Source: Vicinamibacteria bacterium (GTDB lineage Bacteria; Acidobacteriota; Vicinamibacteria; Marinacidobacterales; Marinacidobacteraceae). From it: DNA of 64,000 bases. Numbering within the stretch: position 1 is the stretch's first letter; every line of letters starts with the position of its first letter. Made by a program: the position numbers and the translations under genes. The notes beneath the pieces are model-generated. The model saw nothing but the letters and a program-made list of their open reading frames with translations, did not search any database and was not told the origin of the DNA. Shown here in pieces: positions 6,731 to 36,625 of this stretch. Where the stretch lies: NCBI GenBank assembly GCA_965199715.1, contig OZ241322.1, positions 2,189,486 through 2,253,485 of the forward strand. The letters run 5' to 3'.

Positions 6731-7606
6731 CTACGCCCGGGCGGCGACCGGGTCCGGACCCCGGAACGTCACCCGCCACAGCAGCCGGTCCTCGGACTCG
6801 TCGAACGGGGACGCGGCGTGCATCGCGCACCGGTTGTCCCACACGGCGAGATCCCCCGGCCGCCAGTCCTGACACACCGCGAAGTCGGGGCCGGTCGCGT
6901 GGCGCTCGAGGCGCCGGACGAGCGAGCGGCCGGCGTCCGGGTCGAGGCCGCTCACGCTCCGGACATGGCAACCGGGAACGCACAGCGCGTCGCGCCCCGT
7001 CTCGGGGTGCCGGACGATCAGCGGGCGGACGACCGGCGGGTGGGTCCGGCGGACCTCGGGAGGAAGCGGCGGCCGGTGCGGGTTCGTGCGCCGGAGCAGG
7101 TCGTCGAGGAAGGCGTAGGAGTGCACCCCGTAGCGGCCCGTCGCTTCCTCGAGCAGCGCCGTTGGAAGCGCGTCGTGCGCGTGGGCCATGCCGGCGAACC
7201 AGGTGCCGCCGCCCGAAGCGGGGTGCGTGCGGACGTGGAAGATGGAGCCGGCGGGCTGCGGGACGCGGAAGCTGTCGTCGGTGTGCCACTGGACGCCGCC
7301 CGGCTCGGCGCGGACGAACAGCGAGCGCAGCCTGCCGGTCGCCTTCTCGCGCAGGTTGCCGAGGCGGAGGATCTCCGGATGGCCGGGGAGGAGGAACCCG
7401 GGGTCGTATTTCTCGTTGCGCTCGAGCGAGCCGAAGGCGCGGCAGAACGGGAGGAAATCGTCGGGTTCGAGGAGGCCGCCGCCCCGCAGGACGAGGAGGC
7501 CGCCGGATTCGAGCCAGAGCGCCCGGAGCGGGGCGAGGTCGCGCCCGAGCCGGAAATCGGGAACCAGCCGGCCGAAGCCCGACGGCGTGAGCGGAGCGGC
7601 GCTCAC
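6731..7606 (-). CDS. TauD/TfdA-family Fe(II)/2-oxoglutarate dioxygenase
   Basis: The C-terminal ~290 aa of track ORF 6731..8134 carry TauD-like motifs (WHTDDSF, HVRTH..GGGTWFAGMAHA, WDNRCAMHAASPF). The N-terminal 175 aa of the track ORF are Arg-rich and overlap the upstream gene. I chose the GTG at 7604-7606, which overlaps the M28 peptidase stop (GTGA), as the start. Confidence 0.75.
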   Translation of the reverse strand: MSAAPLTPSGFGRLVPDFRLGRDLAPLRALWLESGGLLVLRGGGLLEPDDFLPFCRAFGSLERNEKYDPGFLLPGHPEILRLGNLREKATGRLRSLFVRAEPGGVQWHTDDSFRVPQPAGSIFHVRTHPASGGGTWFAGMAHAHDALPTALLEEATGRYGVHSYAFLDDLLRRTNPHRPPLPPEVRRTHPPVVRPLIVRHPETGRDALCVPGCHVRSVSGLDPDAGRSLVRRLERHATGPDFAVCQDWRPGDLAVWDNRCAMHAASPFDESEDRLLWRVTFRGPDPVAARA

Positions 7607-9039
7607 CCGCCGTGGGGCAGTCGGTCCGGCATGTCGGCGAGGACGTAGCCGAGCACGGCGAGCATCCCGACGGCTCGCCGGAAGTGGTCCGGGTCCACCT
7701 TGTCGAGCGTGTCCGACTCGGTGTGGTGCCAGTCGAAGTAGTGCTCGCCGACCGTGCGGAACCCGATGCCGGGCACGCCGTCGGCCATGAGCGGGCCGAT
7801 GTCGGCGCCCCCGCCGCCTCGGGCCATCAGTTCGGCGTCGATGCCCGAGAAGAGGCTGCCGATGGGCCGGAGGATGGAGAGCGCCTCGTCGTAGGGGCCG
7901 TCCTCGCCGGAGACCCACTGGAGGCCGATCCCGAAGCCCACCGGCCGCTCGGCCCCGCCGTCCATCTCGATCGCCGCGACGTGGCCGCCGATCGCGTCGC
8001 CGACGTACTCCCGGTAGGCGCGGCCGCCGCGCAGGCCGTTCTCCTCGTTGGTCCAGAGCACGACCCGCAGCGTGCGCCTCGGCCTCAGTCCGAGCCGGTG
8101 CAGGAGCGTCAGGCCGTGCCAGGCGGCGACGCACGCCGCGCCGTCGTCATGCGCCCCATGGCCCACGTCCCACGAGTCGTAGTGGCCGCCCATGACCACG
8201 ACCTCGTCGGGAAGCTCGCTTCCGGTGATCTCGGCCATGACGTTGTGGGAAAGCGCGTCGGGAAGGATTTCGTTCGACATCTCGAACCGCAGCCGGATCG
8301 GCATGCCGAGGTCATCCATCCGCCGCAGGGCCTCGGCGTCCTCCACCGTGAGCGCCGCCGCCGGGATGCGCTGGAGGCCGTCCTCGTACTGCATGTTCCC
8401 GGTGTGCGGCGTGTGGAGGCTGCTCCCGGTCGCCGAGCGCACGAGACTCGCCACCGCGCCCATCCGCGCGGCGCGCACGGCCCCCATGCGGCGGTAGGCG
8501 CCGGTGCCGCCGTATCCCGTCCAAGGGACCGCCCACACGACGATCTTGCCTTCGACCTCGCTGCGCGGCATGGCCTCCAGTTCCTCGAACGAGCGGGCCA
8601 CGACCGCCTCGGTCGTCAGGCCTCCGTCCGGCGTCCCGACGCTTCCCCCGAGCGAGAGGATGCGGAGGTCGCGTTCGAGGTGGGGTTCGTCGGCGAGAAG
8701 CCGGAGCGAGGCCGGCCCGCGAACCCAGTGGGGCACCTCGACTTCCTGGAGGTGGATCTTCTCGAGTCCCTCCGCCCGCATCGTCTCCGCCGCCCAGTCG
8801 ATGGCCTGTTCGAGCCCGGCGGAACCGCTTAGCCGGTGGCCGATCCGCAGCGAGAGGTGCTCGAGCTTCGCCCAGCCGTCCACGTCCACGAGCGCCGCGC
8901 CGAGGACGCGCCCGGCGACTTCGCGATAGCGGTCGGCGAGCTCGTGGCGGTCCCCCGGAAAGCGCTCCGGGTCCGGCGGCTGCGCCCAGGCGGGGGCAGT
9001 CAGGAGGAGCGCGGTGAGAAGCAGGCCGATGCGTCGCAT
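7603..9039 (-). CDS. M28-family zinc aminopeptidase with N-terminal signal peptide
   Basis: Start taken at the second Met (MRRIGLLLTALLLTAPAWAQ is a signal peptide). M28 metal-ligand motifs present (GGHYDSWDVGHGAHDDGAA, NEENGLRG, DWHHTESDTLD). Confidence 0.8.
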   Translation of the reverse strand: MRRIGLLLTALLLTAPAWAQPPDPERFPGDRHELADRYREVAGRVLGAALVDVDGWAKLEHLSLRIGHRLSGSAGLEQAIDWAAETMRAEGLEKIHLQEVEVPHWVRGPASLRLLADEPHLERDLRILSLGGSVGTPDGGLTTEAVVARSFEELEAMPRSEVEGKIVVWAVPWTGYGGTGAYRRMGAVRAARMGAVASLVRSATGSSLHTPHTGNMQYEDGLQRIPAAALTVEDAEALRRMDDLGMPIRLRFEMSNEILPDALSHNVMAEITGSELPDEVVVMGGHYDSWDVGHGAHDDGAACVAAWHGLTLLHRLGLRPRRTLRVVLWTNEENGLRGGRAYREYVGDAIGGHVAAIEMDGGAERPVGFGIGLQWVSGEDGPYDEALSILRPIGSLFSGIDAELMARGGGGADIGPLMADGVPGIGFRTVGEHYFDWHHTESDTLDKVDPDHFRRAVGMLAVLGYVLADMPDRLPHGG

Positions 9040-25093: not shown

Positions 25094-26524
25094 ATGCCGA
25101 AGCCGCCGCGCCCCGCCGTCGGGGCGATGCTCGTTCGGGGCGGCCGGACGCTGCTCGTGCGGCGCTCGCCGAAGCTGCGCGCCTTCGCGAACTTCTGGGC
25201 GTTTCCCGGCGGCACAATCGCCCGGTCGGACTCCGGCCCCGCCGAGGCCGCCGCCCGGGAGGTCTTCGAGGAGACCGGAGTCCTGCTGGCGCGGGGCCGC
25301 GATCCCGCCGTCCCGCTGGACCCGCTGCGCCGGGCGCTGCTGGCGGAGGAGATTTCGTTCGCCGAGGCGCTGCGGCGGACCGGCGCGACGCTGCGCGACG
25401 CCGACTTCGTCGAGGTCGAGTCGCTCACCACCCCCGAATCCGCCCCGTATCGCTTCGAGACCCGGTTCTTCCGGCTGCCACTCCCCGACGACGCCGAGGT
25501 CTCCGTCTGGCCGGGCGAGATCGTGGACTCGGCGCTCGCGACCCCCGAGGAGGCGCTCGCCCGCTGGCGAGACGGCGCCATGGCGCTCGCGCCGCCGATC
25601 ATCGGTCTCCTCGAGCGCTGGTCGGACGACGACGCCCAGTACCGCGAGCGGAACCGCGTCGAGCGGGCGCGCCGCCCGGTCGTCCGGTTCTCGCCCGGAT
25701 GCGCGGTGATTCCGTGCCGGACGCGCACGCTCCCGCCGGCGACCCACACGAACGCGATCCTCATGGGGACCTCCCGGCGCTTCCTCGTGGATCCGGCGCC
25801 CGAGGATCCGGACGAACGAGCGATGCTCTTCGAACTGGTGGACCGCCTGCTCGGTGCCGACCGGCTCGAGGCGGTGCTGGTCACCCACCACCATCCGGAC
25901 CACGTGGGATCGGTCGCGGCGGCCGCCGAACGCTACGAAGTTCCCGTCGGGGCGCACCGAGAGACCCTCGCCCGGCTGCCGGCCTTTCCCGGCGCGACCC
26001 GCGCGCTGGACGAGGGCGACGTTCTCGATCTCGGGACCGCGCCCGACGGCTCGCCCGACTGGCGCCTTGGGGTCCAGTTCGTGCCCGGCCACGCGCCCGG
26101 GCACCTTGCGTTCGTCGAGAGCCGCTACGGCGCGATGATCCTTGGCGACATGGTCTCGTCGATCTCGTCGATCCTGATCTCGCCCGAAGACGGCGATCTG
26201 GGCCAGTACATGGATTCGCTGCGCCGCCTCGCCGGCGAGTGCCGGGGGATGGCGTATCCGGGCCACGGGACGCCAGTGGTCGATGGCCCGGGGCTGCTCG
26301 CGAAGCAGGTCAAGCACCGGGAAGCTCGGGAGGCGGCGGTGCTGGACGCGCTCGGGGAGCGTCCGGCCGCCCTCCGCGAGATCGGGTTGCGCGCGTATCC
26401 GGAAGTCCCCGAGTCGGGGCCGGTGCGCCGTATGGCCGAGACCGCGCTGACCTCCGGCCTGCTGAAGCTGGAGCGGGAGAATCGCGCGCGGCGCGGCGGG
26501 GACGGCTGGGCGCTCGCCGGCTGA
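25094..26524 (+). CDS. NUDIX hydrolase domain fused to MBL-fold metallo-hydrolase domain
   Basis: The N-terminus has the Nudix box (GGTIARSDSGPAEAAAREVFEETGVLL). The C-terminus has the MBL motif VLVTHHHPDHVGS plus downstream His (VPGHAPGHLAF, YPGHG). Starts 28 nt from the divergent agmatinase-like start. Confidence 0.75.
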   Translation: MPKPPRPAVGAMLVRGGRTLLVRRSPKLRAFANFWAFPGGTIARSDSGPAEAAAREVFEETGVLLARGRDPAVPLDPLRRALLAEEISFAEALRRTGATLRDADFVEVESLTTPESAPYRFETRFFRLPLPDDAEVSVWPGEIVDSALATPEEALARWRDGAMALAPPIIGLLERWSDDDAQYRERNRVERARRPVVRFSPGCAVIPCRTRTLPPATHTNAILMGTSRRFLVDPAPEDPDERAMLFELVDRLLGADRLEAVLVTHHHPDHVGSVAAAAERYEVPVGAHRETLARLPAFPGATRALDEGDVLDLGTAPDGSPDWRLGVQFVPGHAPGHLAFVESRYGAMILGDMVSSISSILISPEDGDLGQYMDSLRRLAGECRGMAYPGHGTPVVDGPGLLAKQVKHREAREAAVLDALGERPAALREIGLRAYPEVPESGPVRRMAETALTSGLLKLERENRARRGGDGWALAG

Positions 26525-26526
26525 AC

Positions 26527-27801
26527 CTACTCGGCCGTGCTGCCGGGCACTGTGTTCCCGGCGATCACGACGCGCTCGATCGTGCGCAGCGCCGCGATCC
26601 CGTCGAGTGGGTTCTCGCGCAACACGATGAAATCGGCCCACTTGCCGGGAACTAGCTCGCCCACTTCGTCAAAATCCAGACACCGCGCCGCGTCGCGGGT
26701 GGCCGAGAGGAGGATCTGTTCGGCGCTCAGCCCCGCCTCGGCCATCTCGGCGGTCTCGATGTGCTCGAAGTAGCCCTGGAAGCGCGCCGGCGGCCCGGTG
26801 TCGGTGCCGAACGCGATGGTCACCCCGGCGTCGGCCACGGCCTTCACGTTGGCCATCGCGATCGGGTAGTGCTCCCGATAGCCCTGCGCGGACGGGCTCG
26901 CGGCGACCCGCGCCATGCGCTCGGGATCCCGCAACTGGTCCAGCACCGCCGGATCGGCGTCCTTCAGGAAGAACGGGTCGTCGAAGAACTCGGGCACGTC
27001 GGCGTACACGAAGGTGGAGATCTCCCGCACCAGCGTGGGCACGTAGCAGACGCCCTTTTCCAGCATGAGGTCGAGAAACTCCTGATCGACCGGCTGGTCG
27101 CGCACGCTGTGGGCGATCAGCCCCGACCCCAGGCGCAGCGCCTCCTTCGCGTCGTCCAGGTAGAAGATGTGGGTCGTGACCCGCTTGCCGGCCTCGGCGG
27201 CGAGCGCCATGACCCGCTCGATGGTCTCCGACGGCACCCGCTCGTTCGCGCCGAGGTTCGTGTCGATCCGCATCTTGAGGAAGTCGGCGGGCAGCGCGAG
27301 GCTCTCGGTCACGATCGCCTCGGCCTCCTCGGGCGAGCCGCTCGAGACGATCCCCCCGCCGATCCAGATGCGGGCGCGGTCCAGCGACTCGTCCTGCTCG
27401 TCGCGCAGCGCCGCCGCCTCCGGCCCGTCGCCGCCCAGCGAGGCGATGCTCGTGACCCCGTAGCGGGCGTAGAGCGCGAGCTGCCGGACGAGGTTCTCGC
27501 GAGTGTAGTGCCCGCCTTCCAGACCCATCACGTCGCCCACGTGCCCGTGCGCGTTCACGAAGCCGGGAATGACGGTCATCCCCGAAAGGTCCGTCACCTC
27601 GGCCCCGGCGGGAACCTCGACCGCGCCCGCCGCCGAGACCCGTCCGTCGCGCACGACGAGAACCGCGTCCTCGACGGCAGCCGCGCCGGTCCCGTCCCAC
27701 AGCGTGATCCCGGTGTAGGCGGTGACTCCCTCGAGCGGGGGCGGCGGCTCGGGGCCGCAGCCGAGCAGGGCGATCAGGGCGAGGGGCAGGGAAAGGCGCA
27801 T
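26527..27801 (-). CDS. Amidohydrolase-family lipoprotein (COG1228 imidazolonepropionase / Xaa-Pro dipeptidase-like)
   Basis: Start taken at the internal Met giving MRLSLPLALIALLGCGPE (lipobox). Metal-site motifs IPGFVNAHGHVGD, THIFY, AFGTDTG. The IS256 element ends ~78 nt upstream of its start codon. Confidence 0.75.
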   Translation of the reverse strand: MRLSLPLALIALLGCGPEPPPPLEGVTAYTGITLWDGTGAAAVEDAVLVVRDGRVSAAGAVEVPAGAEVTDLSGMTVIPGFVNAHGHVGDVMGLEGGHYTRENLVRQLALYARYGVTSIASLGGDGPEAAALRDEQDESLDRARIWIGGGIVSSGSPEEAEAIVTESLALPADFLKMRIDTNLGANERVPSETIERVMALAAEAGKRVTTHIFYLDDAKEALRLGSGLIAHSVRDQPVDQEFLDLMLEKGVCYVPTLVREISTFVYADVPEFFDDPFFLKDADPAVLDQLRDPERMARVAASPSAQGYREHYPIAMANVKAVADAGVTIAFGTDTGPPARFQGYFEHIETAEMAEAGLSAEQILLSATRDAARCLDFDEVGELVPGKWADFIVLRENPLDGIAALRTIERVVIAGNTVPGSTAE

Positions 27802-27878
27802 GGGAACCTCCGGGGGCGGCTGAGCATATCCGTGGGCCGTAGTGCCTCCGGCGCTTTCGCCCGGAGAAGGGACTGTCC

Positions 27879-27899
27879 GTAATTCCGTGTTTGGGGGCC
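27879..27899. repeat. IS256-family left terminal inverted repeat
   Basis: GTAATTCCGTGTTTGGGGGCC pairs with the right end (16-nt perfect core TTCCGTGTTTGGGGGC... allowing 3 mismatches over 21 nt). Confidence 0.5.
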
Positions 27900-27926
27900 A
27901 TGGCATGAAGTCCGGGAGGACGAGGC

Positions 27927-29177
27927 GTGGCACGCGCACGACAGCTACGAGGGCCGCGCCCGCGGAAGGGGCGGATCAGCGACCGGCTGCTGGATGAGCT
28001 ACTGGCGGGGGAGGACCCGACCGAGGCCTTCCACGACGGGAAGCTGGTCGCCGAGTCGAAGAAGGCGCTCAGCGAGCGGATCCTCGGGGCCGAGATGGGC
28101 CCGCATCTGGACCGCAAGGCGGAGCGGGCGGCGGGGAACCACCGGAACGGGCACAACCGGAAGCGGGCGCTCGCGGGCGACGTGGAGCTGGATCTGGCGG
28201 CGCCCCGGGATCGCCACGGGACGTTCGAGCCGCAACTGGTGGAGAAGTGCGCCCGGCGGCTGCCGGGGTTCGACGAACAGGCGATCTCGATGTACGGGCG
28301 GGGGATGGCGACGCGGGAGATCCAGGGCCGCGTGGAGCAGTCGTACGGGATGAAGGCGTCGGCGGAGACGATCTCCGCGGCCACCGAAACGGTAGCGGAG
28401 GATGTCCGGGAGTGGCGCTCGCGCCCGCTGGAGGCGACCTGCGCGCTGGTGTTCTTCGACGCGCTGCGGGCGAAGATCCGGGACGGGGGCCTGGTGCGGA
28501 ACAAGGCGGCGTGCATGGCCATCGGGGTGACCTGCGGGGGCCGGAAGGAGGTTCTGGGGTTCTGGATCCAGGAGACGGAGGGGGCGAAGTTCCGGCTGGG
28601 GGTGATGAACGAGCTGAAGGGCCGGGGGGTCCGGGACGTGCTGATCGCGGTGGCGGACGGGCTGAAGGGCTTCCCGGAGGCGATCGAGGCGGCGTTCCCG
28701 CAGGCGCTCGTGCCGAAGTGCGTGGCGCGCCTGATCCGGCGGTCGCCGCGCTACGCGTCGCACAAGGAACGGCGGGAGCTGGCGGCGGCGCTGAAGACGA
28801 TCTGCCGCGCGGCGACGGAGGCGGCGGCGGAAGCGGCGCTGGACGCGGTGGAGGACGGGCCGTGGGGTCGGAAGCATCCGGCGATCCCGGCGATGTGGCG
28901 GCGTGCGTGGACGCAGGCGATCCCGTTCCTCGCGTTCTCGGAGCCGATCCGGCGGGCGATCTACACGACGAACGCGATCGAGAGCCGGAACAGTTCGGTG
29001 CGGCGTGCGGTGCGGACGCGGGGATGCTTCCCGCACGACCGTGCGGCGGCGAAGTTGATCTGCCTGGCGCTGCGGCGGGCGCAGGCGGCGTGGAAGCGGC
29101 CGCCGCGGTACTGGCGCGAGGCGCGGGCGGAGTTCGCGATCCGGTTCGGGGCGCGGTTCCAGCCGGATGACCCCTGA
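27927..29177 (+). CDS. IS256-family (Mutator-type) transposase
   Basis: 416 aa with hallmark IS256 transposase blocks (DRKAERAAGNHRNGHNRKRAL, DRHGTFEPQLVEK, DEQAISMYGRGMATREIQGRVEQSYGMKAS, VFFDALRAKIRDGGLVRNKAACMAIGVTCGGRKEVLGFW, DVLIAVADGLKGFPEAIEAAFP). GGGAGG RBS 8 nt before the GTG start. Confidence 0.9.
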   Translation: MARARQLRGPRPRKGRISDRLLDELLAGEDPTEAFHDGKLVAESKKALSERILGAEMGPHLDRKAERAAGNHRNGHNRKRALAGDVELDLAAPRDRHGTFEPQLVEKCARRLPGFDEQAISMYGRGMATREIQGRVEQSYGMKASAETISAATETVAEDVREWRSRPLEATCALVFFDALRAKIRDGGLVRNKAACMAIGVTCGGRKEVLGFWIQETEGAKFRLGVMNELKGRGVRDVLIAVADGLKGFPEAIEAAFPQALVPKCVARLIRRSPRYASHKERRELAAALKTICRAATEAAAEAALDAVEDGPWGRKHPAIPAMWRRAWTQAIPFLAFSEPIRRAIYTTNAIESRNSSVRRAVRTRGCFPHDRAAAKLICLALRRAQAAWKRPPRYWREARAEFAIRFGARFQPDDP

Positions 29178-29330
29178 GCGCCCGACGGCGAGTTCCCCTC
29201 GGCCTTCCTCCGCTCCGCCGACTCAGCCCGGATCGGCCCCGGCGCACCCTCGGCGGCCCGCCGTTCCGGCCCGGCTCACCCCGCTGGTACCGTCAGACGC
29301 GCCCTGGCGACGGGGGCGAAGAAACATCTA

Positions 29331-29351
29331 CGCCCCCAAACACGGGAATCC
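29331..29351. repeat. IS256-family right terminal inverted repeat
   Basis: CGCCCCCAAACACGGGAATCC is the reverse complement partner of the left IR. Confidence 0.5.
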
Positions 29352-29482
29352 TGATACCTCCGTTCAAGGATCTGCCCACCCGCGCGGCGGGAGTCCGCGA
29401 CGGCTACTCGCCAAGAACGCACGAACTGGGCCGACGCTACAAGGAGCGCTGTGACTTCGAATGCGGGTGCCGTGGGGTTCCG

Positions 29483-29734
29483 TTGACGAACGGGGACGCG
29501 AAACTCCTCGACTTGCACCACATCAACGGAGTGACGCAGGACAACAACTGGGCGAACCTCATGGCGCTATGCAAGCTGTGTCACGCGGGGCAGCCGCAGC
29601 ACGGCCGCCTGCAGGCGTCCGAGGAGGACGAACGTCGGATTCGCGAGCTGCGCAACCGCAAGAACGGGAATCGCGGCGAGGACGACCAACTCGGCCCGGC
29701 GGTGAGCGGACGCGGGGTAGGCTCCGCGCCGTGA
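29483..29734 (+). CDS. HNH endonuclease-domain protein, N-terminus apparently truncated or displaced by the IS256 insertion
   Basis: A complete HNH motif is present, but its first Cys pair lies upstream of the first canonical start: ...GVRDGYSPRTHELGRRYKERCDFECGCRGVPLTNGDAKLLDLHHINGVTQDNNWANLMALCKLCH. The frame is open back to the IS right IR at ~29352, with only CTG/ATA codons available. The track ORF begins at TTG 29483. Confidence 0.5.
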   Translation: MTNGDAKLLDLHHINGVTQDNNWANLMALCKLCHAGQPQHGRLQASEEDERRIRELRNRKNGNRGEDDQLGPAVSGRGVGSAP

Positions 29735-29769
29735 CCGTCTCCCCGGCCTCCGTCCTCGGCCGCCAGAGC

Positions 29770-30615
29770 ATGTGCGGGCGGCTCCTCGAGGTGCTCGTCA
29801 TCGCGCCGCAGGGGGCCATGTGGAGCCATCCCGCGGGCTACCGGGAACTCGGCTACCTGCATCCGCCCGAACCAGACTTGGCCGCCCGGCAGCATCGTGC
29901 GCTGCGCTCCGAACTGGCCGGGTTCGGCGCCAGGGTTCGCGAAGCCGCGCCGACGGGGCTGTCCGCCGACGCGGTGTATTGCCACGACGCCTCGTTCCCG
30001 ACGCCCCGGGGCATGGTGCTGATGCGCATGGGCAAGCCGGCGCGGGCCGCCGAGCCGGAGGCGCATCGGGCGCTCTACCGTGAAATGGACATTCCCGTGA
30101 TCGGCGCGATCGAGGCGCCGGGGGTGATGGAGGGCGGCGATCTCGTCTGGCTGGACGAGCGCACGGTGCTCGCCGGGGAGGGTTACCGGACCGACGCGGC
30201 GGGGATCGCGCAGCTTGCCGCGTTGCTCGCTCCCGACGGCGTGGAGGTGATCGCGTCGGCGCTGCCGCACGGGGACGGGCCGGCGTGCTGCCTCCACCTG
30301 ATGTCCCTCATCAGCGTGCTCGACTCGCGGACGATGGTCGCCGATCCGCGCTTTCTCGCCGTGCCCACGATGAAGCTGCTGGAGGATCGCCGGTTCCGGC
30401 TGATCCCGATCGTGGACGAGGAGCGGGAGACCATGGCTGCGAACGTGCTCGCGCTCGGCCACGGGGAGCTTCTCGCGATCGAGGCCAACGAGCGCACGAA
30501 CGAGCGGCTCGAGGGCGCCGGGTTCCGGGTCCGGACCTATCCCGGCTCGGAGATCAGCCAGAACGGTTCGGGCGGTCCCACCTGCCTCACGCGACCGATC
30601 CGGAGGGCGCAGTGA
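29770..30615 (+). CDS. DDAH / amidinotransferase-superfamily enzyme (dimethylarginine dimethylaminohydrolase / arginine-deiminase-like fold)
   Basis: ~281 aa. C-terminal catalytic Cys motif SEISQNGSGGPTCLTRPI is typical of the guanidino-group-modifying enzyme superfamily. The overall order of blocks resembles DDAH. An alternative GTG start at 29731 overlaps the HNH stop (GTGA). Confidence 0.7.
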   Translation: MCGRLLEVLVIAPQGAMWSHPAGYRELGYLHPPEPDLAARQHRALRSELAGFGARVREAAPTGLSADAVYCHDASFPTPRGMVLMRMGKPARAAEPEAHRALYREMDIPVIGAIEAPGVMEGGDLVWLDERTVLAGEGYRTDAAGIAQLAALLAPDGVEVIASALPHGDGPACCLHLMSLISVLDSRTMVADPRFLAVPTMKLLEDRRFRLIPIVDEERETMAANVLALGHGELLAIEANERTNERLEGAGFRVRTYPGSEISQNGSGGPTCLTRPIRRAQ

Positions 30616-30884
30616 AGCGGCGGAAGCTGGCGGGGTTCCTGACTTTCCTCGCGTTTCTCCTGCTCGTCGCGTACGTCGTCCGTTCCACCATGAGCATGGG
30701 CGGCTCCCGTTGCGAGGTCACGATGACGATGAGCGGTCGGACGGCCACGGTCGGGGCCCGGGGGGCGACGCCCGCCGACGCGACTCGGGCCGCGATCACC
30801 GGGGCCTGCGCCCGGATCGCCAACGGGCGCACCGAGAACATCCTCTGCCTCGACTCACCGCCGCTCGCCGTCTCCTGTCAGTGA
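30612..30884 (+). CDS. Small membrane-anchored Cys-containing protein (90 aa), hypothetical
   Basis: GTG overlaps the DDAH-like stop (GTGA). MKRRKLAGFLTFLAFLLLVAYVV TM anchor, then a soluble tail with 4 Cys. Its 3' end overlaps the convergent minus-strand ORF by ~30 nt. Confidence 0.4.
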   Translation: MKRRKLAGFLTFLAFLLLVAYVVRSTMSMGGSRCEVTMTMSGRTATVGARGATPADATRAAITGACARIANGRTENILCLDSPPLAVSCQ

Positions 30885-31314
30885 CGCGAGCGGCGTGACC
30901 GTTCCGTCGGGCCGCGCGACGAACGCCTCGGTTGGAGTCTTCCAGACCGCGCGCACCGCGAATCGCCAGCGCCGCGCCCGCGCGACCGTCCCCCGGTCGC
31001 CCGTGGGGGCCATGACCATGACGGCCGCGCGGTCCGGGCCGCGGATCGCGCTCGGCACGGTCACGAGGAACGGCCGCCCGGCCCGGTCCCGCAGCGCCGC
31101 CCGCACGTCGCTGCGCAGTTCGCCGGGACGCTCTTCCAGCCACGATCCGGCGGCGCGGGCGAGGGCGGTGGCTTCCCGGACGACCGCTTCCCGATCCCGG
31201 GCGGCGACGACGCGGCGATCCAGCATCCGCTCCGCCGCCGCGGCGTCGGCTTCGAGACCCTCGGCGATCCGCGCCAGCAGCAGGTGGGCGAGCCGCCGGG
31301 TCGCCGCGCTCACT
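30855..31314 (-). CDS. Hypothetical protein (~153 aa) translationally coupled to the AddAB-fusion gene
   Basis: GTG start overlaps the addAB-fusion stop (GAGTGAGCG = GTGA coupling). MSAATRRLAHLLLARIAEGLEADAAAAERMLDRRVVAARDREAVVREATALARAAGSW...PFLVTVPSAIRGPDRAAVMVMAPTGDRGTVARARRWRF... Not matched to a known family by eye. Confidence 0.4.
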
Positions 31315-34300
31315 CGCTCGCCGACGGCGGCAGCACCTTCAGCTTGTGGCGCTTCCAGTGGATCTCCGGCTGCGGCTTCTTGGCCGTCATCGCCGCCGCG
31401 CCCCACAGATCGCCCGGCAGCAGCTTCGCGAGGCCGCCCGCAGCGGTCGGCGCGCCGTCCTTCTTGAACCCGGTCACGCCGGAAAGCGTCAGGCTGCGGC
31501 GCGCCCGGGTCATCGCCACGTAGAGACAGCGTCGCTCCTCGGCGGCGCTCCGGCCCGCGTCCTGGACCTGCCAGTGGCTCGAGTCGCCGATCAGCGCGAT
31601 GCTCCAGTCCCCCTCGTCGCTCTCCTGGACCCGCAGCCCGGAGCCCCATCCGCCGATCCTCGCGTTCAGATCGACCGCCAGCACGTGGTCGTACTCCAGG
31701 CCCTTGGCGGCGTGGATGGTGAGCACCTGCACCGCTCCCGCCGCCCGCAGCGGCGCCTGGGTCGCGTCGTGGCCGTCGCCGCCCGCCGACTCGAGATGCC
31801 GGGCGGCGTCGGCGAACGTCGCGAAGCCGCTCCGCTCCACTCGCTGGACGTGGTGGAGCGCCTTCTCCACGTTCGCCTCCTGCTGGCGCCCCTCGAACGC
31901 CCCGCCGGTCGCCCGCACCCGGTCGAGATAGCCGGTCTCCTCGAGGATCCGCCGCAGCGCGAGCGACGGCGGCAGTTGGCGCGACAGCTTGATCCACGCC
32001 GGCGCGACCCGGCCGGCCTCCGCCAGCGGGCCGTCCGCTTCGATGCGCCCGTTCAGCAGGTCCGCGAACGGCGTCGCCGCCCCGTGATCCCGGGCGCGAA
32101 GCTCCGCCAGCGCGCCGGCGGGGATCGCGAAGAAGCGCGAGCGCAGCAGCTCGACCGCGCGCAGGTCGGACGACGGGCGGGCGAGGAACCGGCAGAGCCC
32201 GGTCAGGTCGAGCACTTCGGATGAGTCGAAGAACCCGGCTCCCTTGACGAGGTACGTGGGAACCCCGAGCCGCTCCACTGCGTCCCGGTAGAGCCCGAGC
32301 CGGGAGGCGGCGCGGGCGAGGATCGCGATGCGGTCGAGCGGAACCCCCCGGGCGGCGAGCGCCGCGATCCGGGCGGCGACCCGCCGCGCCGCTTCGTCGT
32401 GGTCCTGGGCGACCGCGACCGACAGCGGGATCTCCTCCGCCGGCCCCTCGTCCATCGGGCCGGCCTCTTCGGGGAAGCGGTCGTCGTCGTCGTAGCGGAA
32501 GCTCCAGTCGCGGTCGGCCTCGCGGTCGGCCTGCGCGATCGCGGCTGCCGTGTCGTTCACGAACGAGCGCAGCGGGCCGGTGGAGCGGAAGTTCCACCGG
32601 AGCGCGAGGCGGGGATGGGTCTTCGGGCGCATCCGCTCCCGGATCCAGTTCTCGGTGCGGTTCAGGATCTCGACCCGAGCGCTGCGGAAGCGGTAGATGG
32701 ACTGCTTGTGGTCGCCCACCACGAACAGCGTCGGCGCGCCCAGCCGGCCCCCGGTGACCCGGCGCACTTCCTCGGCGGCCAGCCCCTCGCCGCTCGTCCA
32801 CGGTTCGGCGATCGCCCGGAGCAGCTCCCACTGCGGGTCGCTCGTGTCCTGGAACTCGTCGAGAAGCAGGTGGTGGTAGCGGGACTCCAGCCGGAACCGG
32901 CTCTCGGCGAACTCCCCGGTCGCGCCCAGCAGATTCGTGGCGGCGACGGTGAGATCGTCGAAGTCCATGACCCCGCGGTCTTCCTTGAGCCGCTGGTACT
33001 CCGCCTCGACCGCCTGGAGCAGCCGCCAGACCGGGTCGAACGTCCGCTCGTTCAGCGAGTCCAGCCACTCGACGTTGAACTCCCTGAGCAGCGGCCGCAG
33101 CTTCCTGTACTCCGCCATGACCGGACGAAGGGGACCCTTGAGGTGCTTCGGAGCCGTCTTGAGGCCGAGCGGAATCCACTCCAGCAACGCTTCCCGGTCG
33201 AGCGCGTCGCGGGAGCCGGCCTGCTCCGACAGCTTCAGCGCGAGGCGCACCGGGGTCGGCAGCTTGCCGTCGTAGCCCGCGAGAATCCGCCGCGCGTCGG
33301 CCTCGACCCCGCGGAACCCGTCGCGCAGCGCCGGCCGGGGCCGGGGAGCCCCTCCGGCCGCCGCCCGGCTCTCGAAGGTGCGCCGCCAGGTGAGCCGGTT
33401 CTGCAAGTAACCCGCCGCCACCCCGTCCAGCCGGGCGAGGCTCTTGCCGAGCAGCGGCAGTTCCGCGAGCAGCTTGCGGTCGAAGCCGGTCGCCCCGGTG
33501 AGCACCCGGCCGATGGCCTCGGCCTGCACGACCGGCATCTCGCGCTCGTCCAGCACTTCCGCGCCGGGGGCCACGCCGGCGTCCAACGGGAACTCGCGGA
33601 TCAGCCCGAGGTTGAAGGCGTCGAGCGTCGAGACCTGCACCTCGCCGAGATCGGGGCGGCGGGTCCACTCCTCGCGCATCTCCGGCTGCGCGAGCCGGGC
33701 CACGATCCGGTCCTTCATTTCCGCGGCGGCCTTGCGGGTGAAGGTGAGCGCGAGGACGTTGCGGGGCGGGACCCCGGCGCGGATCAGGTTCACGTACCGC
33801 TCGGTGAGCACCGTCGTCTTGCCGGTGCCGGCGGACGCGGCGAGCACTGCGTGGCGCCTCGGGTCGGCGGCCGCCCGGCGGGCCGCGTGGTCGCTCGGCG
33901 TGAACGCGACCGGGGTCCGGGGCGGGGCCTGGGGCGCCGGCGCCCCAGGGACGAGCGTCCGCGCCGGCTCCGGCTCGTCGGGGAGGTCGGGGCGCAGCGG
34001 CAGCGGGCGGTCGAACGGGCGCAGCCGCGCCGGGAACTCCCCGGCGGCGAGCCCGTCGCGGACCTCCCGGATGCGCTTGTCGATCTCCCCGGCGCCGTCG
34101 TCGCCCACCCACGTGCGGTCCTTGAAGAAGGGAACCACGAACGAGTCCGCGCCGACCAGCCGGGCGTAGAGCCGGGCCTGCAGGCGCGCCGCGTCCTTGC
34201 CGCGCGACGAGCCCGACTTGAGCTCGACGACCCGCAGCCCGTCCGGGGTCCGGTCCACCCGATCCACTTTGCCCCGGACGTGCAGCGCGGGGAGCGACCC

Positions 34301-36625
34301 GGTCGCCGGCTCGACGATCCCGTCCAGCTCGCCTTCGACCTGGACCGGCTGCGCGGGGCCGCGCTCCGCCTCCTCGCGCAGGTACCACTCCAGCGCCGAC
34401 GGATGCGAGTCCCCGCCGAACAACCACAGCTCCTCGGCGGCGGAAGCGTCCTCGCCCATGCCGGGGGCGATCGACGAGCGGAAGCGTCGCCGGTAGAACT
34501 CGAGCGCGTCGTCGATCGTCGCTTCGGTGAGCGGCCCGAAGCGGCGGAAGAACTCGGGCGCGGCTTCCAGCAGCTTGTGGACGCGGTCGCCCCGGGCGAT
34601 CGCGGAGCCGAAGTCGTTCAGCGTCTCTTCCCGGGGGAGCCGCAGCACCCGGTCGAGAAAGAACTGCGCCGGGTTCGCCGCGTACAGCGTCAGCGCCGAG
34701 GGCGACACCCAACGACCGAGGTCCACCGCCGAGGGGGCCGTCCGCTCGAGGCTGCGCGGCAGCGGGACCGCGGCCGGGTCGGGGATCCGTTCGGGAAGGG
34801 AGACCGGCGCGCGCTCCTCCGGGTTCGCCCCGAGCGCCTCGCCGAGGCTCGCGAAGATCGGGGATTCGCCGGCGGGGAAGCCGTCCTCGAGCTCGGCCCG
34901 AGCGAAGCCCGCCGCCTTGCGGGGAAGCGTCGCGAACGCGCGCAGCAGGCGCCGCTCCCGCCGCCGCGCCTCCGAGAGTCGCTTGCGGGTCGCGTCCTCC
35001 AGAACCCTCGTCGGAAGGAAGATGTTCCCGGCGCGGGGGCCGGGCCAGTCGGCGTCGCCGACCCCCAGCAGCACGACGCAGTCGTAGTCGCCGAAGGGGG
35101 CGTCCTCGGCCTGGATCAGGTGGACGCCGTCGCGTCCTCGATACCGGACCGTCCGCTGGCGCCGCAACTGGCGGCGGACGCGGTCCCGGAACCGGGCCGG
35201 CGTTCCGACCGGAGTCGCGGGCAGCGCGGGATCCGCCGCCCGCCGCAGCGCGTCCATGGCCGGCTCCGGCCCGCCGGGAAAGCAGTCCTCGACGAAGCCG
35301 ACGAAGCACTCCACCGCCTCGTGGAAGGGCGTTTCCGGGTTCTGGATCGGCGCGAGCCGGCGGGCGTGCTCGGCGAGCCGGGCGAGAACGCGCGCAGCGA
35401 CCCGCAGTTCCCGCTCCCGGCGTTCGTCGCCTTCCGGCGGTTCGACGAGCTTCCCGAGGTTCGCCGGATCGTGAGTGTCGCGCACGTCCTCGTAGGCCAG
35501 GCGCGGCTCGGCGACGTCGGCGAGCCGCGCCGGGGCGTTCCCGAGCGCCTGGTCGCGAAAGAACGGGCTCCGCAGGAGCGCGAACCCGTTCGAGAGGCGG
35601 CCCGGAGCCTCGGCGAAGGCCAGCGCGTCGTCGAGCGCCGCCGGCCACGGCTCCTCGGCGAGCGACGGCTGGAAGTCGGTCTGGAACGGGATCCCCGCGG
35701 CGGCGAGATCGTCCGCGTACGCCGCCGGGCGCCGCGCCGCGACCGCGCAGCGCTCGTACGAACCGAAGCCCGCGAGCATCGCGGCGGCCGCGCGGGTCTC
35801 GCCGGCGCGGTCGGTCGTCCGGAAGAGGATGGATCCGTCGCCGGGGACGAACAGGCGCGGCGCCGGGGCCGCGACCGAATCGGCGCGGACCTCGTCGGCG
35901 GTCCAGCCCGGCGGGAGCGCGGGCGCCGCCTCGTCCTCCAGCAGCAGGAAGTCGAGCCCGCCGACGATCGTCGCGAGGATCTCCGCGTCGGCGATCCCGA
36001 CGGCGTCCCCGCCGCCGACGCGGACCCGGGACCACGGGGCCTCGGGCGGCCGGGCCAGCAACCGCCGCCGCGCCAGGTCGAGATCGCAGCGGCCCGACGT
36101 CTCGAGCCCCTCGACGTAGCCCCGGTGCGCGGACTCCAGCCAGCCGGTCAACCGCAGCAGCCGTTCCGCCCCCTCGTCGGTCCCCCGGGCCTCTTCGAAG
36201 GTCCGCCGGGCGCGCTCCAGCAGCGCGTGGAACGCCGGCCGGTCCGGCGCGATCGGGCGGTCGCGCGCCTGCTCGTCGAAAAGGCGCAGCAGCGGCCCGG
36301 CTAGGCGCAGCGGATTGCCCTTCGGCGCCCCCGGATCGTCCGCCGCGGCGAGCACCGCGCTCTCCATGAGCAGCGAGCGTTCGAGCGGCGTGGCGAGGGT
36401 TCCGGGCGGGTCGGCGCGCAGCAGCAGCTCGGCGAGAGCCTCCGCTGCGGTCCGAACCTGCGGAAGCTCGGCGGCCGGGCGGTCGGGGGCGAGCAGCCGG
36501 TCGCGCAACGCTCGTTCGAGCGCCCGGCTCGCGCCCGACGACGGAGTCAGGATCAGGCCCGAGGCGTCCCCGGCGAGCCGCTCCCGCAGCGTCCGCCAGT
36601 CCCGACAGCGGACGATCCGGATCAC
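31310..36625 (-). CDS. Fused AddB-like (inactive helicase + PD-(D/E)xK RecB nuclease) and AddA/UvrD-like helicase, single 1771-aa polypeptide
   Basis: Residues ~1-880 have no Walker A but carry the RecB nuclease motif (GKVDRVDRTPDGLRVVELKSGSS). Residues ~890-1771 are a UvrD/AddA helicase: Walker A AVLAASAGTGKTTVLTERY, motif II LLLDEFQDTSDPQWELL, VGDHKQSIYRFR, and motif VI region RRCLYVAMTRARRSLTL near the C-terminus. No C-terminal nuclease domain on the helicase part. Confidence 0.85.
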   Translation of the reverse strand: MIRIVRCRDWRTLRERLAGDASGLILTPSSGASRALERALRDRLLAPDRPAAELPQVRTAAEALAELLLRADPPGTLATPLERSLLMESAVLAAADDPGAPKGNPLRLAGPLLRLFDEQARDRPIAPDRPAFHALLERARRTFEEARGTDEGAERLLRLTGWLESAHRGYVEGLETSGRCDLDLARRRLLARPPEAPWSRVRVGGGDAVGIADAEILATIVGGLDFLLLEDEAAPALPPGWTADEVRADSVAAPAPRLFVPGDGSILFRTTDRAGETRAAAAMLAGFGSYERCAVAARRPAAYADDLAAAGIPFQTDFQPSLAEEPWPAALDDALAFAEAPGRLSNGFALLRSPFFRDQALGNAPARLADVAEPRLAYEDVRDTHDPANLGKLVEPPEGDERRERELRVAARVLARLAEHARRLAPIQNPETPFHEAVECFVGFVEDCFPGGPEPAMDALRRAADPALPATPVGTPARFRDRVRRQLRRQRTVRYRGRDGVHLIQAEDAPFGDYDCVVLLGVGDADWPGPRAGNIFLPTRVLEDATRKRLSEARRRERRLLRAFATLPRKAAGFARAELEDGFPAGESPIFASLGEALGANPEERAPVSLPERIPDPAAVPLPRSLERTAPSAVDLGRWVSPSALTLYAANPAQFFLDRVLRLPREETLNDFGSAIARGDRVHKLLEAAPEFFRRFGPLTEATIDDALEFYRRRFRSSIAPGMGEDASAAEELWLFGGDSHPSALEWYLREEAERGPAQPVQVEGELDGIVEPATGSLPALHVRGKVDRVDRTPDGLRVVELKSGSSRGKDAARLQARLYARLVGADSFVVPFFKDRTWVGDDGAGEIDKRIREVRDGLAAGEFPARLRPFDRPLPLRPDLPDEPEPARTLVPGAPAPQAPPRTPVAFTPSDHAARRAAADPRRHAVLAASAGTGKTTVLTERYVNLIRAGVPPRNVLALTFTRKAAAEMKDRIVARLAQPEMREEWTRRPDLGEVQVSTLDAFNLGLIREFPLDAGVAPGAEVLDEREMPVVQAEAIGRVLTGATGFDRKLLAELPLLGKSLARLDGVAAGYLQNRLTWRRTFESRAAAGGAPRPRPALRDGFRGVEADARRILAGYDGKLPTPVRLALKLSEQAGSRDALDREALLEWIPLGLKTAPKHLKGPLRPVMAEYRKLRPLLREFNVEWLDSLNERTFDPVWRLLQAVEAEYQRLKEDRGVMDFDDLTVAATNLLGATGEFAESRFRLESRYHHLLLDEFQDTSDPQWELLRAIAEPWTSGEGLAAEEVRRVTGGRLGAPTLFVVGDHKQSIYRFRSARVEILNRTENWIRERMRPKTHPRLALRWNFRSTGPLRSFVNDTAAAIAQADREADRDWSFRYDDDDRFPEEAGPMDEGPAEEIPLSVAVAQDHDEAARRVAARIAALAARGVPLDRIAILARAASRLGLYRDAVERLGVPTYLVKGAGFFDSSEVLDLTGLCRFLARPSSDLRAVELLRSRFFAIPAGALAELRARDHGAATPFADLLNGRIEADGPLAEAGRVAPAWIKLSRQLPPSLALRRILEETGYLDRVRATGGAFEGRQQEANVEKALHHVQRVERSGFATFADAARHLESAGGDGHDATQAPLRAAGAVQVLTIHAAKGLEYDHVLAVDLNARIGGWGSGLRVQESDEGDWSIALIGDSSHWQVQDAGRSAAEERRCLYVAMTRARRSLTLSGVTGFKKDGAPTAAGGLAKLLPGDLWGAAAMTAKKPQPEIHWKRHKLKVLPPSASE

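Follow-up and report, generated by a model that had tools for sequence, protein, structure and literature searches.

A ZorE-family HNH gene remnant between an IS256-family element and a DDAH-like gene: an apparent defence module that is very probably a chance juxtaposition

Introduction

The locus described here combines parts that resemble Zorya type II, the DDAH branch of the guanidino-group-modifying (pentein) superfamily and the IS256 family of insertion sequences. ZorE is the nickase effector of Zorya type II and is dependent on ZorAB (PMC11890865). On annotated plasmids, genes homologous to the HNH gene of our locus are placed last, behind ZorA/ZorB-type genes where these are annotated: the order is zorA2-zorB2-zorE on an Escherichia coli plasmid and hypothetical, OmpA-family, HNH on a Psychrobacter plasmid, and on a Vibrio plasmid the HNH gene comes after a hypothetical gene of ZorA2 size and an unannotated gap. 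The closest relative of the DDAH-like protein, in structure as well as in sequence, is the DDAH of Pseudomonas aeruginosa (PaDDAH; E 1.8e-12).

Here, we analyse a window, by which we mean the whole stretch of 64,000 nucleotides from a Vicinamibacteria bacterium (contig OZ241322.1), in which an HNH reading frame, a DDAH-like gene and a small gene follow one another to the right of an IS256-family copy. A preliminary description regarded the trio as a tightly coupled three-gene unit, with GTGA start-stop overlaps at both junctions and the look of a defence-type module, and offered as its fallback that the HNH gene was a hitchhiker, N-terminally damaged by the insertion sequence (IS), beside a plain guanidino-metabolism-type gene. 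Our results support the fallback: the locus is very probably a chance juxtaposition, in which mobile DNA has come to lie in a variable intergenic spot of a conserved chromosomal block.

The insertion sequence and its chromosomal setting

The IS256-family insertion sequence (27869..29361, plus strand) has outer ends that are approximate, within a few nucleotides, because a second copy was not found. It resembles the IS256 family in its single transposase ORF (27927-29177, plus strand), whose match to PF00872 runs end to end (E 2.3e-100; positions 6-378 of the 379 in the profile), in its length of ~1.5 kb and in its imperfect terminal inverted repeats (27876-27898 and 29332-29354; 83% over 23 nt), the core of which, ATT(C)CCGTGTTTGGGGGC, matches at 17 of 18 positions; an IS256 copy directly left of the unit, as first described, is thus borne out by transposase and repeats alike. 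The left terminus resembles that of IS256 itself (GTCCGTA..ATT..GTGT). Unlike the IS256 family, this element is without a flanking 8-9-bp target-site duplication: where one of ~8-9 bp would be expected, no 8-mer shared between the IS flanks was seen by eye, and the similarity of left and right flanks was not above that of shuffles, which is consistent with deletion or recombination after insertion. The exact transposase sequence occurs only at this locus in the assemblies available, where it is single-copy; in metagenomes, an exact-pattern scan for the IS right end gave no match and a scan with the transposase gave one distant locus, which was uninformative.

By gene calls and Pfam, the genes flanking the locus are core genes that relatives share. 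The conserved left neighbour is an amidohydrolase gene (26527..27801, minus strand; PF01979/PF07969) whose product has a lipoprotein-like N-terminus and which, in relatives without the IS, is divergent from the DDAH-like gene. One such relative, L004, whose DDAH-like protein is 79% identical, has the amidohydrolase gene, a 76-nt spacer, the DDAH-like gene and a 90-aa gene; the order is the same in L006-L008, and in L013-L016 the amidohydrolase gene likewise lies upstream of the DDAH-like and small genes. The IS is missing from the equivalent site in L004-L008 and L013-L016, and the IS and HNH fragment together make up the entire insertion relative to L004. In the comparison with IS-free alleles that had been recommended, syntenic relatives thus have the DDAH-like gene next to the amidohydrolase gene, with neither IS nor HNH.

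We regard the amidohydrolase/DDAH spacer as a variable insertion spot because some relatives hold a HEPN/nucleotidyltransferase pair there: a HEPN and HicB/nucleotidyltransferase pair lies inside the spacer of L013, and the same two ORF clusters occupy the spacer in L014 and L016. A type II restriction-modification (R-M) pair is found close to the site in L004; the HNH gene of that genome was considered as a relative of the window's and rejected, being an unrelated type II restriction enzyme. To the right, and outside the unit, lies a convergent conserved 152-aa gene (30855..31313, minus strand), the 3' end of which shares 30 nt with the small gene. It sits downstream of a fused AddB-AddA-type helicase-nuclease gene, was called, with lengths of 152-200 aa, both in the window's strain and in relatives, and gave no match in family searches (Pfam, NCBIfam, PADLOC). 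An arginase/agmatinase-family gene is located ~4.7 kb upstream, in agreement with the agmatinase-family gene noted before, and a promoter and terminator consensus scan of 27700-31400 found none.

The HNH reading frame

As previously described, an HNH-motif ORF directly follows the IS, its frame being open from 29171 to 29734. Homology to ZorE spans 29363 to 29671, and its onset, nt 29363, is 1-2 nt past the IS end; the rest of the frame, as far as the TGA at 29732-29734, is unmatched. This segment (29363..29734, plus strand), a putative pseudogene, matches the ZorE profiles of PADLOC (PDLC00642; E 5e-25, profile positions 194-279 of 283) and NCBIfam (NF041791; E 5.5e-16, positions 186-274 of 358, a partial match whose score is for that reason far under the 600-bit cut-off). 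A ZorE HMM that we built from 116 full-length relatives (343 positions) matched at positions 184-287 (E 7e-35), and its positions 1-183 found no match anywhere in the window, even with the HMMER filters off. The HNH piece keeps the C-terminal ~105 residues of ZorE and the ~180-residue N-terminal region is missing. It is like the ZorE of Zorya type II in that ZorE is its best profile match and the core HH...N...CxxCH residues are intact; it is unlike ZorE in its upstream CxxC, a zinc ligand found in 106 of the 116 relatives and here absent or altered in spacing, and in an identity of at most 43% to any relative. The earlier statement that the first HNH Cys cluster precedes any canonical start holds as well: TTG 29483 is the first ATG, GTG or TTG in frame, and the sole ORF with a canonical start (TTG 29483-29734, 83 aa) is without the first zinc-ligand region.

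A word-index search with the HNH piece returned only itself, and relatives came from a full HMMER scan, the best non-self ones being 38-43% identical. Those that rank highest are full-length ZorE-profile proteins (270-390 aa), and in most relatives the match is located at residues ~180-285 of proteins of that size. The representative library also has a minority of short relatives (114-190 aa); two of these, P0137 and P0145, look like fragments, because the match, preceded by 20-45 residues, is to the C-terminal part of ZorE only.

The rest of a Zorya system was sought in the window: as tblastn queries, ZorA2 and ZorB2 of E. coli and a ZorA-like protein of Vibrio gave nothing better than E 1, and neither zorA nor zorB was detected. 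A candidate N-terminal remainder of zorE left of the IS, a seemingly collinear tblastn match of Vibrio ZorE at 27544-27864 (E 0.06), was rejected as chance because it lies in opposite-strand amidohydrolase coding sequence and the ZorE HMM is silent there. The tail of the HNH ORF was also considered as a duplicate of left-flank intergenic sequence and rejected, the similarity in a three-way alignment being no better than that of shuffles. Unlike Zorya type II, the locus is without the N-terminal ~180 residues of ZorE, zorA, zorB and a usable zorE start. Judged by these comparisons, the HNH ORF is what remains of a ZorE-family (Zorya type II effector) gene after loss of its 5' part, a relic and not a functional Zorya system; the zorE tail is most likely a pseudogene, unconnected with the neighbouring genes. 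Since the fragment retains a coding signature (GC3 0.83 vs 0.90-0.94 in host genes) and the intact HNH core, the truncation is possibly recent, or some residual function may remain.

The DDAH-like gene

Public gene callers start the DDAH-like gene at GTG 29731, giving a 294-aa product, so that the first GTGA overlap of the preliminary description is present in the sequence and in use; that it is a real start is unlikely. The Met encoded by ATG 29770 is invariant in 21 of 21 aligned homologues, and the extension upstream of it is unconserved. In the closest relative, the gene starts at the position equivalent to ATG 29770. The leader of the gene (29735..29769, plus strand) aligns with the L004 intergenic sequence directly 5' of the conserved ATG and would be a residue of the ancestral amidohydrolase/DDAH spacer. 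The true start is thus most likely ATG 29770, giving a gene at 29770..30615 (plus strand; 281 aa) separated by a 35-nt gap from the stop of the HNH frame. The HNH/DDAH overlap would then be an artefact of ORF calling, and tight coupling would be restricted to the DDAH-like and small genes.

The protein matches PF02274 (1.2e-24; the HMM check suggested earlier for the ORF ending at 30615) and PF19420 (8e-8), both over the gathering scores. In a residue-by-residue alignment to PaDDAH (PDB 1h70/3rhy) over the whole domain, the Cys of GGPTCLT, correctly named before as the catalytic-Cys motif, aligns with Cys249, and the putative triad Cys272, His176 and Glu121 corresponds to PaDDAH Cys249, His162 and Glu114 and is invariant in 21 homologues. 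The likeness extends to Asp60, Asp66, Arg85 and Arg132 of PaDDAH, which, like the triad, match family-invariant residues, and the substrate-anchoring positions Arg92, Arg140 and Asp73 are conserved in the DDAH-like protein. Unlike PaDDAH, the family has an invariant His at the Glu65 position, so that the guanidino-recognition site, and possibly the substrate, would differ, and the protein is ~30 residues longer. The NCBIfam dimethylargininase models all score under their cut-offs; the best of them, the Streptomyces-type DDAH model NF045660, matches at 2.8e-27, but its 96 bits are far from the equivalog cut-off of 340 bits, which sets the protein apart from dimethylargininase proper. Arginine deiminase (ArcA) belongs to the same superfamily and its C-terminal catalytic-Cys segment aligns, whereas the matches are only partial and the DDAH-like protein is ~130 residues shorter; no ornithine carbamoyltransferase or carbamate kinase gene was found among the neighbours covered by Pfam-annotated gene calls or by our scans. 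We propose that the protein works in the cytoplasm as a Cys-His-Glu hydrolase and belongs to the DDAH branch of the superfamily; as the residues that anchor the carboxylate and amino groups are conserved, its substrate is probably a free amino acid resembling arginine.

The family has >4000 homologues, with 585 confirmed matches in species representatives, the nearest of which are labelled Acidobacteriota, Marinacidobacterium or Vicinamibacteraceae, so that the Gemmatimonadota setting assumed in the preliminary description is doubtful. Its neighbours are lineage-dependent and include HemL/Mfd/GalU or ornithine cyclodeaminase (L049), and in Terriglobales an aminotransferase, OprB, Mfd, a nucleotidyltransferase and PurE. 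By all appearances, this is an ordinary, widespread chromosomal gene.

The small gene and its coupling to the DDAH-like gene

The second GTGA overlap stood up: the 90-aa ORF (30612..30884, plus strand; GC3 0.90) overlaps the DDAH stop, and a GGAGG is located 6-11 nt 5' of its start. The protein is basic at its N-terminus, contains a single TM helix and has four invariant Cys within a domain of ~55 aa; it carries the motif RAAITGACARIAxGRTxNILCLD and belongs to a family of 12 clusters; searches of Pfam, NCBIfam and PADLOC gave no family and a fold search with the AF2 model (pLDDT 88) against the PDB gave no significant match. We read it as a membrane-anchored, disulfide-bonded and probably outward-facing protein.

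The 4-nt overlap is found in the window, L006-L008, L009-L011 and L013, and its conservation is confined to one acidobacterial clade; in L013-L017 the small gene lies immediately 3' of the DDAH-like gene. The small gene is present at 6 of 80 species-representative DDAH-like loci, and one relative keeps it with the DDAH-like gene absent. An association of the small gene with the amidohydrolase gene, suggested by L049 and L005, was rejected, the L049 amidohydrolase not being orthologous to that of the window. Conservation of the overlap argues for a functional link between the DDAH-like and small genes within this clade, and we propose that only here is the small protein co-translated with the enzyme. 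That the two form a clade-specific functional pair, with the four-Cys protein perhaps serving as partner, sensor or regulator for guanidino-compound metabolism, is a tentative suggestion that we consider rather doubtful. The translationally coupled pair belongs to Marinacidobacterium/Vicinamibacteria-like Acidobacteriota, and an extracytoplasmic or membrane location is suggested for the small protein when the two genes are read as a pair.

Origin of the arrangement

The relatives show the ancestral state, in which only ~70-90 nt lie between the amidohydrolase gene on the minus strand and the DDAH-like gene on the plus strand, with the small gene after the DDAH-like gene and its start overlapping the DDAH stop. 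We infer that a Zorya II-like cassette, zorA-zorB-zorE, once lay in this spacer, with zorE last and facing the DDAH-like gene. An IS256-family element would then have inserted into zorE, and zorA, zorB and the initial ~180 codons of zorE would have been lost, either in an adjacent deletion mediated by the IS or by recombination of IS copies with each other, leaving an IS without target-site duplication and a zorE tail of ~310-370 nt. An intact zorABE cassette at this site was found in none of the relatives, so that the step of an in-situ Zorya island stays an inferred one. The HNH fragment may instead have arrived with the IS, as flanking DNA mobilised from an earlier insertion site or within a composite or one-ended transposition product, in which case no relic of an in-situ Zorya cassette would exist here. 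IS and fragment account for the whole insertion relative to L004, the target-site duplication is missing and the GC3 of the fragment is below that of host genes, all of which would suit such an arrival; we nevertheless hold it to be unlikely, as no third inverted-repeat copy, IR-like sequence or surrogate end was found where the fragment ends distally, near 29700-29770, the exact transposase is single-copy in the available assemblies and so shows no donor site, and zorE in last place with the IS on its zorA/zorB side fits an in-situ deletion.

Both of these histories treat the HNH ORF as debris. It could also be an intact, naturally short gene, used from a non-canonical start or through read-through from the IS, as the short relatives, the frame open from 29171 and the intact core residues might suggest. 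This is very improbable, for the short relatives tested look like fragments themselves, homology begins at the IS boundary itself, and the frame has neither a canonical start ahead of 29483 nor the CxxC zinc-ligand spacing. Still harder to sustain is the trio as one accessory or defence-type module, travelling with the IS256 element or activated by it, a reading that the comparative data have already largely refuted. It draws on three adjacent same-strand genes with GTGA at both junctions, on an HNH domain of a defence-system type and on a site where relatives hold defence or toxin-antitoxin (TA) cargo. Against it, a ZorE-like HNH was found at 0 of 92 loci outside the window's own strain, and no HNH partner accompanied the DDAH-like homologues at any of 80 loci from species representatives or in any syntenic relative fetched; 74 of the 80 are also without the small gene, and the three genes do not co-occur across genomes. 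This is the pattern that the preliminary description had itself linked to chance juxtaposition. In addition, the HNH is short of ~180 residues at its N-terminus and of a usable start codon, the first GTGA is unlikely to be a real start, the DDAH-like family is widespread and chromosomal with unrelated neighbours, and the PADLOC screen gave no family at E <= 0.1 for the DDAH-like or the small protein. Of the tightly coupled unit, the DDAH/small-gene pair stands and the HNH, with its 35-nt gap, does not.

Concluding remarks

As a three-gene finding the locus is ordinary, because the neighbourhood would have arisen by chance, and its main value is a negative result: an apparent new defence module dissolves on comparison with IS-free alleles. 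It illustrates two traps in high-GC genomes, namely longest-ORF start calls that produce apparent start/stop overlaps and reading frames that stay open through dead gene fragments. Of minor positive value are a documented example of an IS256-family element apparently destroying a Zorya II effector gene, a small variable insertion spot with TA, R-M or IS cargo in relatives, and an orphan family of four-Cys small proteins that is coupled to a DDAH-like enzyme.

Organization of the locus

The window has a GC content of 72%, and re-reading its sequence and locating the ORFs and motifs confirmed the coordinates and motifs of the three ORFs as they were given in the preliminary description. An amidohydrolase gene (26527-27801, minus strand) precedes an IS256-family transposase gene (27927-29177; PF00872 match, E = 2.3e-100) with imperfect inverted repeats at 27876-27898 and 29332-29354; no target-site duplication was found at this element (here, the IS). 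Next come an HNH-motif frame, open from 29171 to a TGA at 29732-29734, a DDAH/ADI-superfamily ORF ending at 30615 and a small ORF of 90 aa (30612-30884). Convergent to the latter is a conserved 152-aa gene (30855-31313, minus), followed by a 1771-aa AddB-AddA-type fusion (31310-36625, minus), and a 476-aa fusion of NUDIX and metallo-beta-lactamase domains (NUDIX-MBL; 25094-26524, plus) adjoins the amidohydrolase gene.

The 1771-aa ORF combines AddB-type (PD-(D/E)XK) and AddA/UvrD-type helicase-nuclease domains, as do ORFs of 1821 aa in L004, the locus of the closest relative (DDAH-like protein 79% identical), and of 1825 aa in L005, that of another close relative. In the more distant loci L006-L011 the two types are separate genes of ~1040 and ~850-930 aa, and the fused form looks like a lineage-specific gene fusion. 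In L009-L011 the syntenic block also holds defence-type cargo, an N6_N4 methyltransferase gene between the AddB-type and GH3 genes (6862-8208, plus, in L009 and L010). The 152-aa gene, for which no family match was found, encodes 152-200 aa in relatives; a 4-nt overlap joins its start to the AddAB-type stop, and its 3' end overlaps that of the small gene convergently by 30 nt, compared with ~90 nt in L006-L011. The NUDIX-MBL fusion is kept in all syntenic relatives, and in PADLOC the NUDIX part weakly matches the candidate system PDC-S07 (7e-7).

The HNH frame and its probable Zorya type II parentage

Profile searches place the HNH ORF in the ZorE family, as the 3' end of such a gene. Sub-threshold HNH matches are all that Pfam yields, whereas the PADLOC ZorE models match at up to 5e-25 (profile positions 194-279 of 283) and the NCBIfam ZorE model at 5.5e-16 (positions 186-274 of 358), both covering the C-terminal part of the profile alone. 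Scanned in full with HMMER, 1.8 billion representatives yielded 682 relatives at identities of up to 43%, mostly of 270-390 aa and matching at residues ~180-285. Seven of the ten best (277-388 aa) match the ZorE profile end to end, and the other three, which are shorter and match its C-terminal part only, look like fragments. An HMM of 343 positions, built from 116 full-length relatives, has a single match in the window, nt 29363-29671 (profile positions 184-287, E = 7e-35). Homology therefore begins 1-2 nt past the point where the IS is inferred to end on the right (~29361), and with filters off in this HMM search profile positions 1-183 have no match in the whole 64 kb. A collinear-looking candidate remnant left of the IS (27544-27864, plus; tblastn with Vibrio ZorE, E = 0.06) proved to be a chance match by profile search; it runs antisense to the amidohydrolase gene and illustrates how, where GC is high, an antisense frame can look like a gene remnant.

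By its sequence the HNH piece was once a real coding sequence, probably foreign, with a GC3 of 0.83 vs 0.90-0.94 in neighbouring host genes. No in-frame ATG, GTG or TTG occurs between 29171 and TTG 29483, which sits downstream of the first zinc-ligand region, and the CxxC found upstream of the HH motif in 106 of the 116 ZorE relatives is replaced by CGCR. The missing start codon and the altered CxxC are read here as signs of decay.

Zorya II has ZorE as its nickase effector, which needs ZorAB (PMC11890865). In annotated plasmids the HNH homologue is the last gene, behind ZorA/ZorB-type genes wherever those are annotated: the order is zorA2-zorB2-zorE in E. coli, a ZorA2-sized hypothetical gene, an unannotated gap and HNH in Vibrio, and a hypothetical gene, an OmpA-family gene and HNH on a Psychrobacter plasmid. 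Neither ZorA nor ZorB was detected in the window, and the IS lies on the side of the HNH piece where zorA and zorB would have stood. From these contexts, the parent of the piece is likely to have been a Zorya II cassette. In the simplest history, the IS256-family element would have entered zorE, and an IS-mediated deletion, a step that we infer, would then have taken out zorA, zorB and the 5' half of zorE. An intact zorA-zorB-zorE cassette was found at the amidohydrolase/DDAH site in no relative examined.

The DDAH-like gene and its small partner

The DDAH-like gene is, by sequence comparison, ordinary and widespread, with lineage-specific neighbours. Of the candidates scored, more than 4000 are homologues (E <= 1e-3), and 585 matches were confirmed in species-representative genomes, mostly of Acidobacteriota. 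In Terriglobales the homologue has a class-III aminotransferase or OprB porin gene on one side and Mfd, nucleotidyltransferase and PurE genes on the other. In L049 (4772-6861), from a Marinacidobacterales MAG, it stands behind an ornithine cyclodeaminase gene, and by clustering only, a gene of that family is placed near the homologue in L051 and L025 (Vicinamibacterales) too; this hints at an arginine/ornithine-to-proline context for the enzyme family. Cys249, His162, Glu114, Asp60, Asp66, Arg85 and Arg132 of P. aeruginosa DDAH (1h70/3rhy, E ~1e-12) are matched by residues invariant in the family, whereas Glu65 corresponds to an invariant His, and the protein falls far under the cut-off of the NCBIfam dimethylargininase equivalogs. 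We conclude that the protein is a predicted hydrolase of the DDAH branch, whose putative substrate is a free amino acid resembling arginine.

By its conservation the small gene is a real one, and its coupling to the DDAH-like gene is confined to one clade. Members of its family (12 protein clusters) have in common a basic N-terminus, a single hydrophobic helix and a domain of ~55 aa in which four Cys are invariant; the AlphaFold model (pLDDT 88) has a TM helix and a beta-hairpin, then two helices and a last strand, with no match among Pfam, NCBIfam or PADLOC families or PDB folds. GGAGG precedes its start, which overlaps the DDAH-like stop by 4 nt in the window, L006-L008, L009-L011 and L013; in L004 a 1-nt spacer separates the two. 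Of the 80 species-representative loci, only 6 carry the small gene; L049 has it as a monocistronic gene, ~1.6 kb away and on the opposite strand, and in L005 (6656-8273; small protein 77% identical) it directly follows the amidohydrolase gene, 55 nt off, with no DDAH-like gene. The pairing is therefore clade-specific and non-obligatory.

A chance juxtaposition at a variable site

The preliminary description favoured a single three-gene module and offered, as a fallback, a hitchhiking HNH gene damaged by the IS. Overlapping GTGA start-stop signals had suggested HNH/DDAH coupling, an artefact of start choice: all 21 aligned homologues share Met 29770 (MCGRL...), while the N-terminal extensions called in some of them are not conserved, the L004 gene begins at the equivalent Met, and the 35-40 nt preceding it in the window align to L004 intergenic sequence, which leaves ~35 nt between the HNH-frame stop and the likely DDAH start. 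L004 has the window's gene order (short-chain dehydrogenase, HMGL-like, arginase-family, NUDIX-MBL, amidohydrolase, a 76-nt spacer, DDAH-like, 90-aa gene, AddAB-type gene) free of IS and ZorE-type HNH, and the more distant L006-L008 share it; in L013-L017 the small gene is immediately 3' of the DDAH gene, with the amidohydrolase gene also upstream in L013-L016. Across 92 loci, including 80 GTDB species representatives with a DDAH homologue, the ZorE HMM matched the window's own strain and no other locus. The window's own genome is absent from the GTDB representatives; those closest to it in the DDAH-like gene (63-68% identity) bear the labels Acidobacteria, Candidatus Marinacidobacterium or Vicinamibacteraceae, whereas Gemmatimonadota had been assumed. 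In the loci compared, neither HNH nor a consistent arginine-catabolic operon accompanies the DDAH-like homologues. Co-travel fails for the HNH and holds for the small gene in one clade only. By the refuting condition that the preliminary description itself had set, the module is rejected, and the fallback is confirmed and sharpened to a ZorE 3' tail starting at the IS edge. Judged from the IS-free alleles, the HNH piece is not part of the DDAH/small-gene unit.

Comparison of these loci also marks the amidohydrolase/DDAH neighbourhood as a variable, recurrent insertion spot. In L013 (4862-5850, minus) a toxin-antitoxin-type pair, made up of a HEPN-domain and a HicB/nucleotidyltransferase gene, fills the amidohydrolase/DDAH spacer, which in the window holds the IS and the ZorE relic, and the two ORF clusters of this pair recur there in L014 and L016. 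L004 (5201-6569, minus) has other defence-type cargo in the block: a type II restriction-modification pair (HNH REase and N6_N4 MTase), two genes upstream and unrelated to the window's HNH piece, is flanked by the NUDIX-MBL gene and the amidohydrolase gene. The three-ORF 'unit' has come about by chance: an IS256-family element and a dead ZorE tail lie next to a conserved DDAH-like/small-gene pair, and the locus holds nothing outside known kinds.
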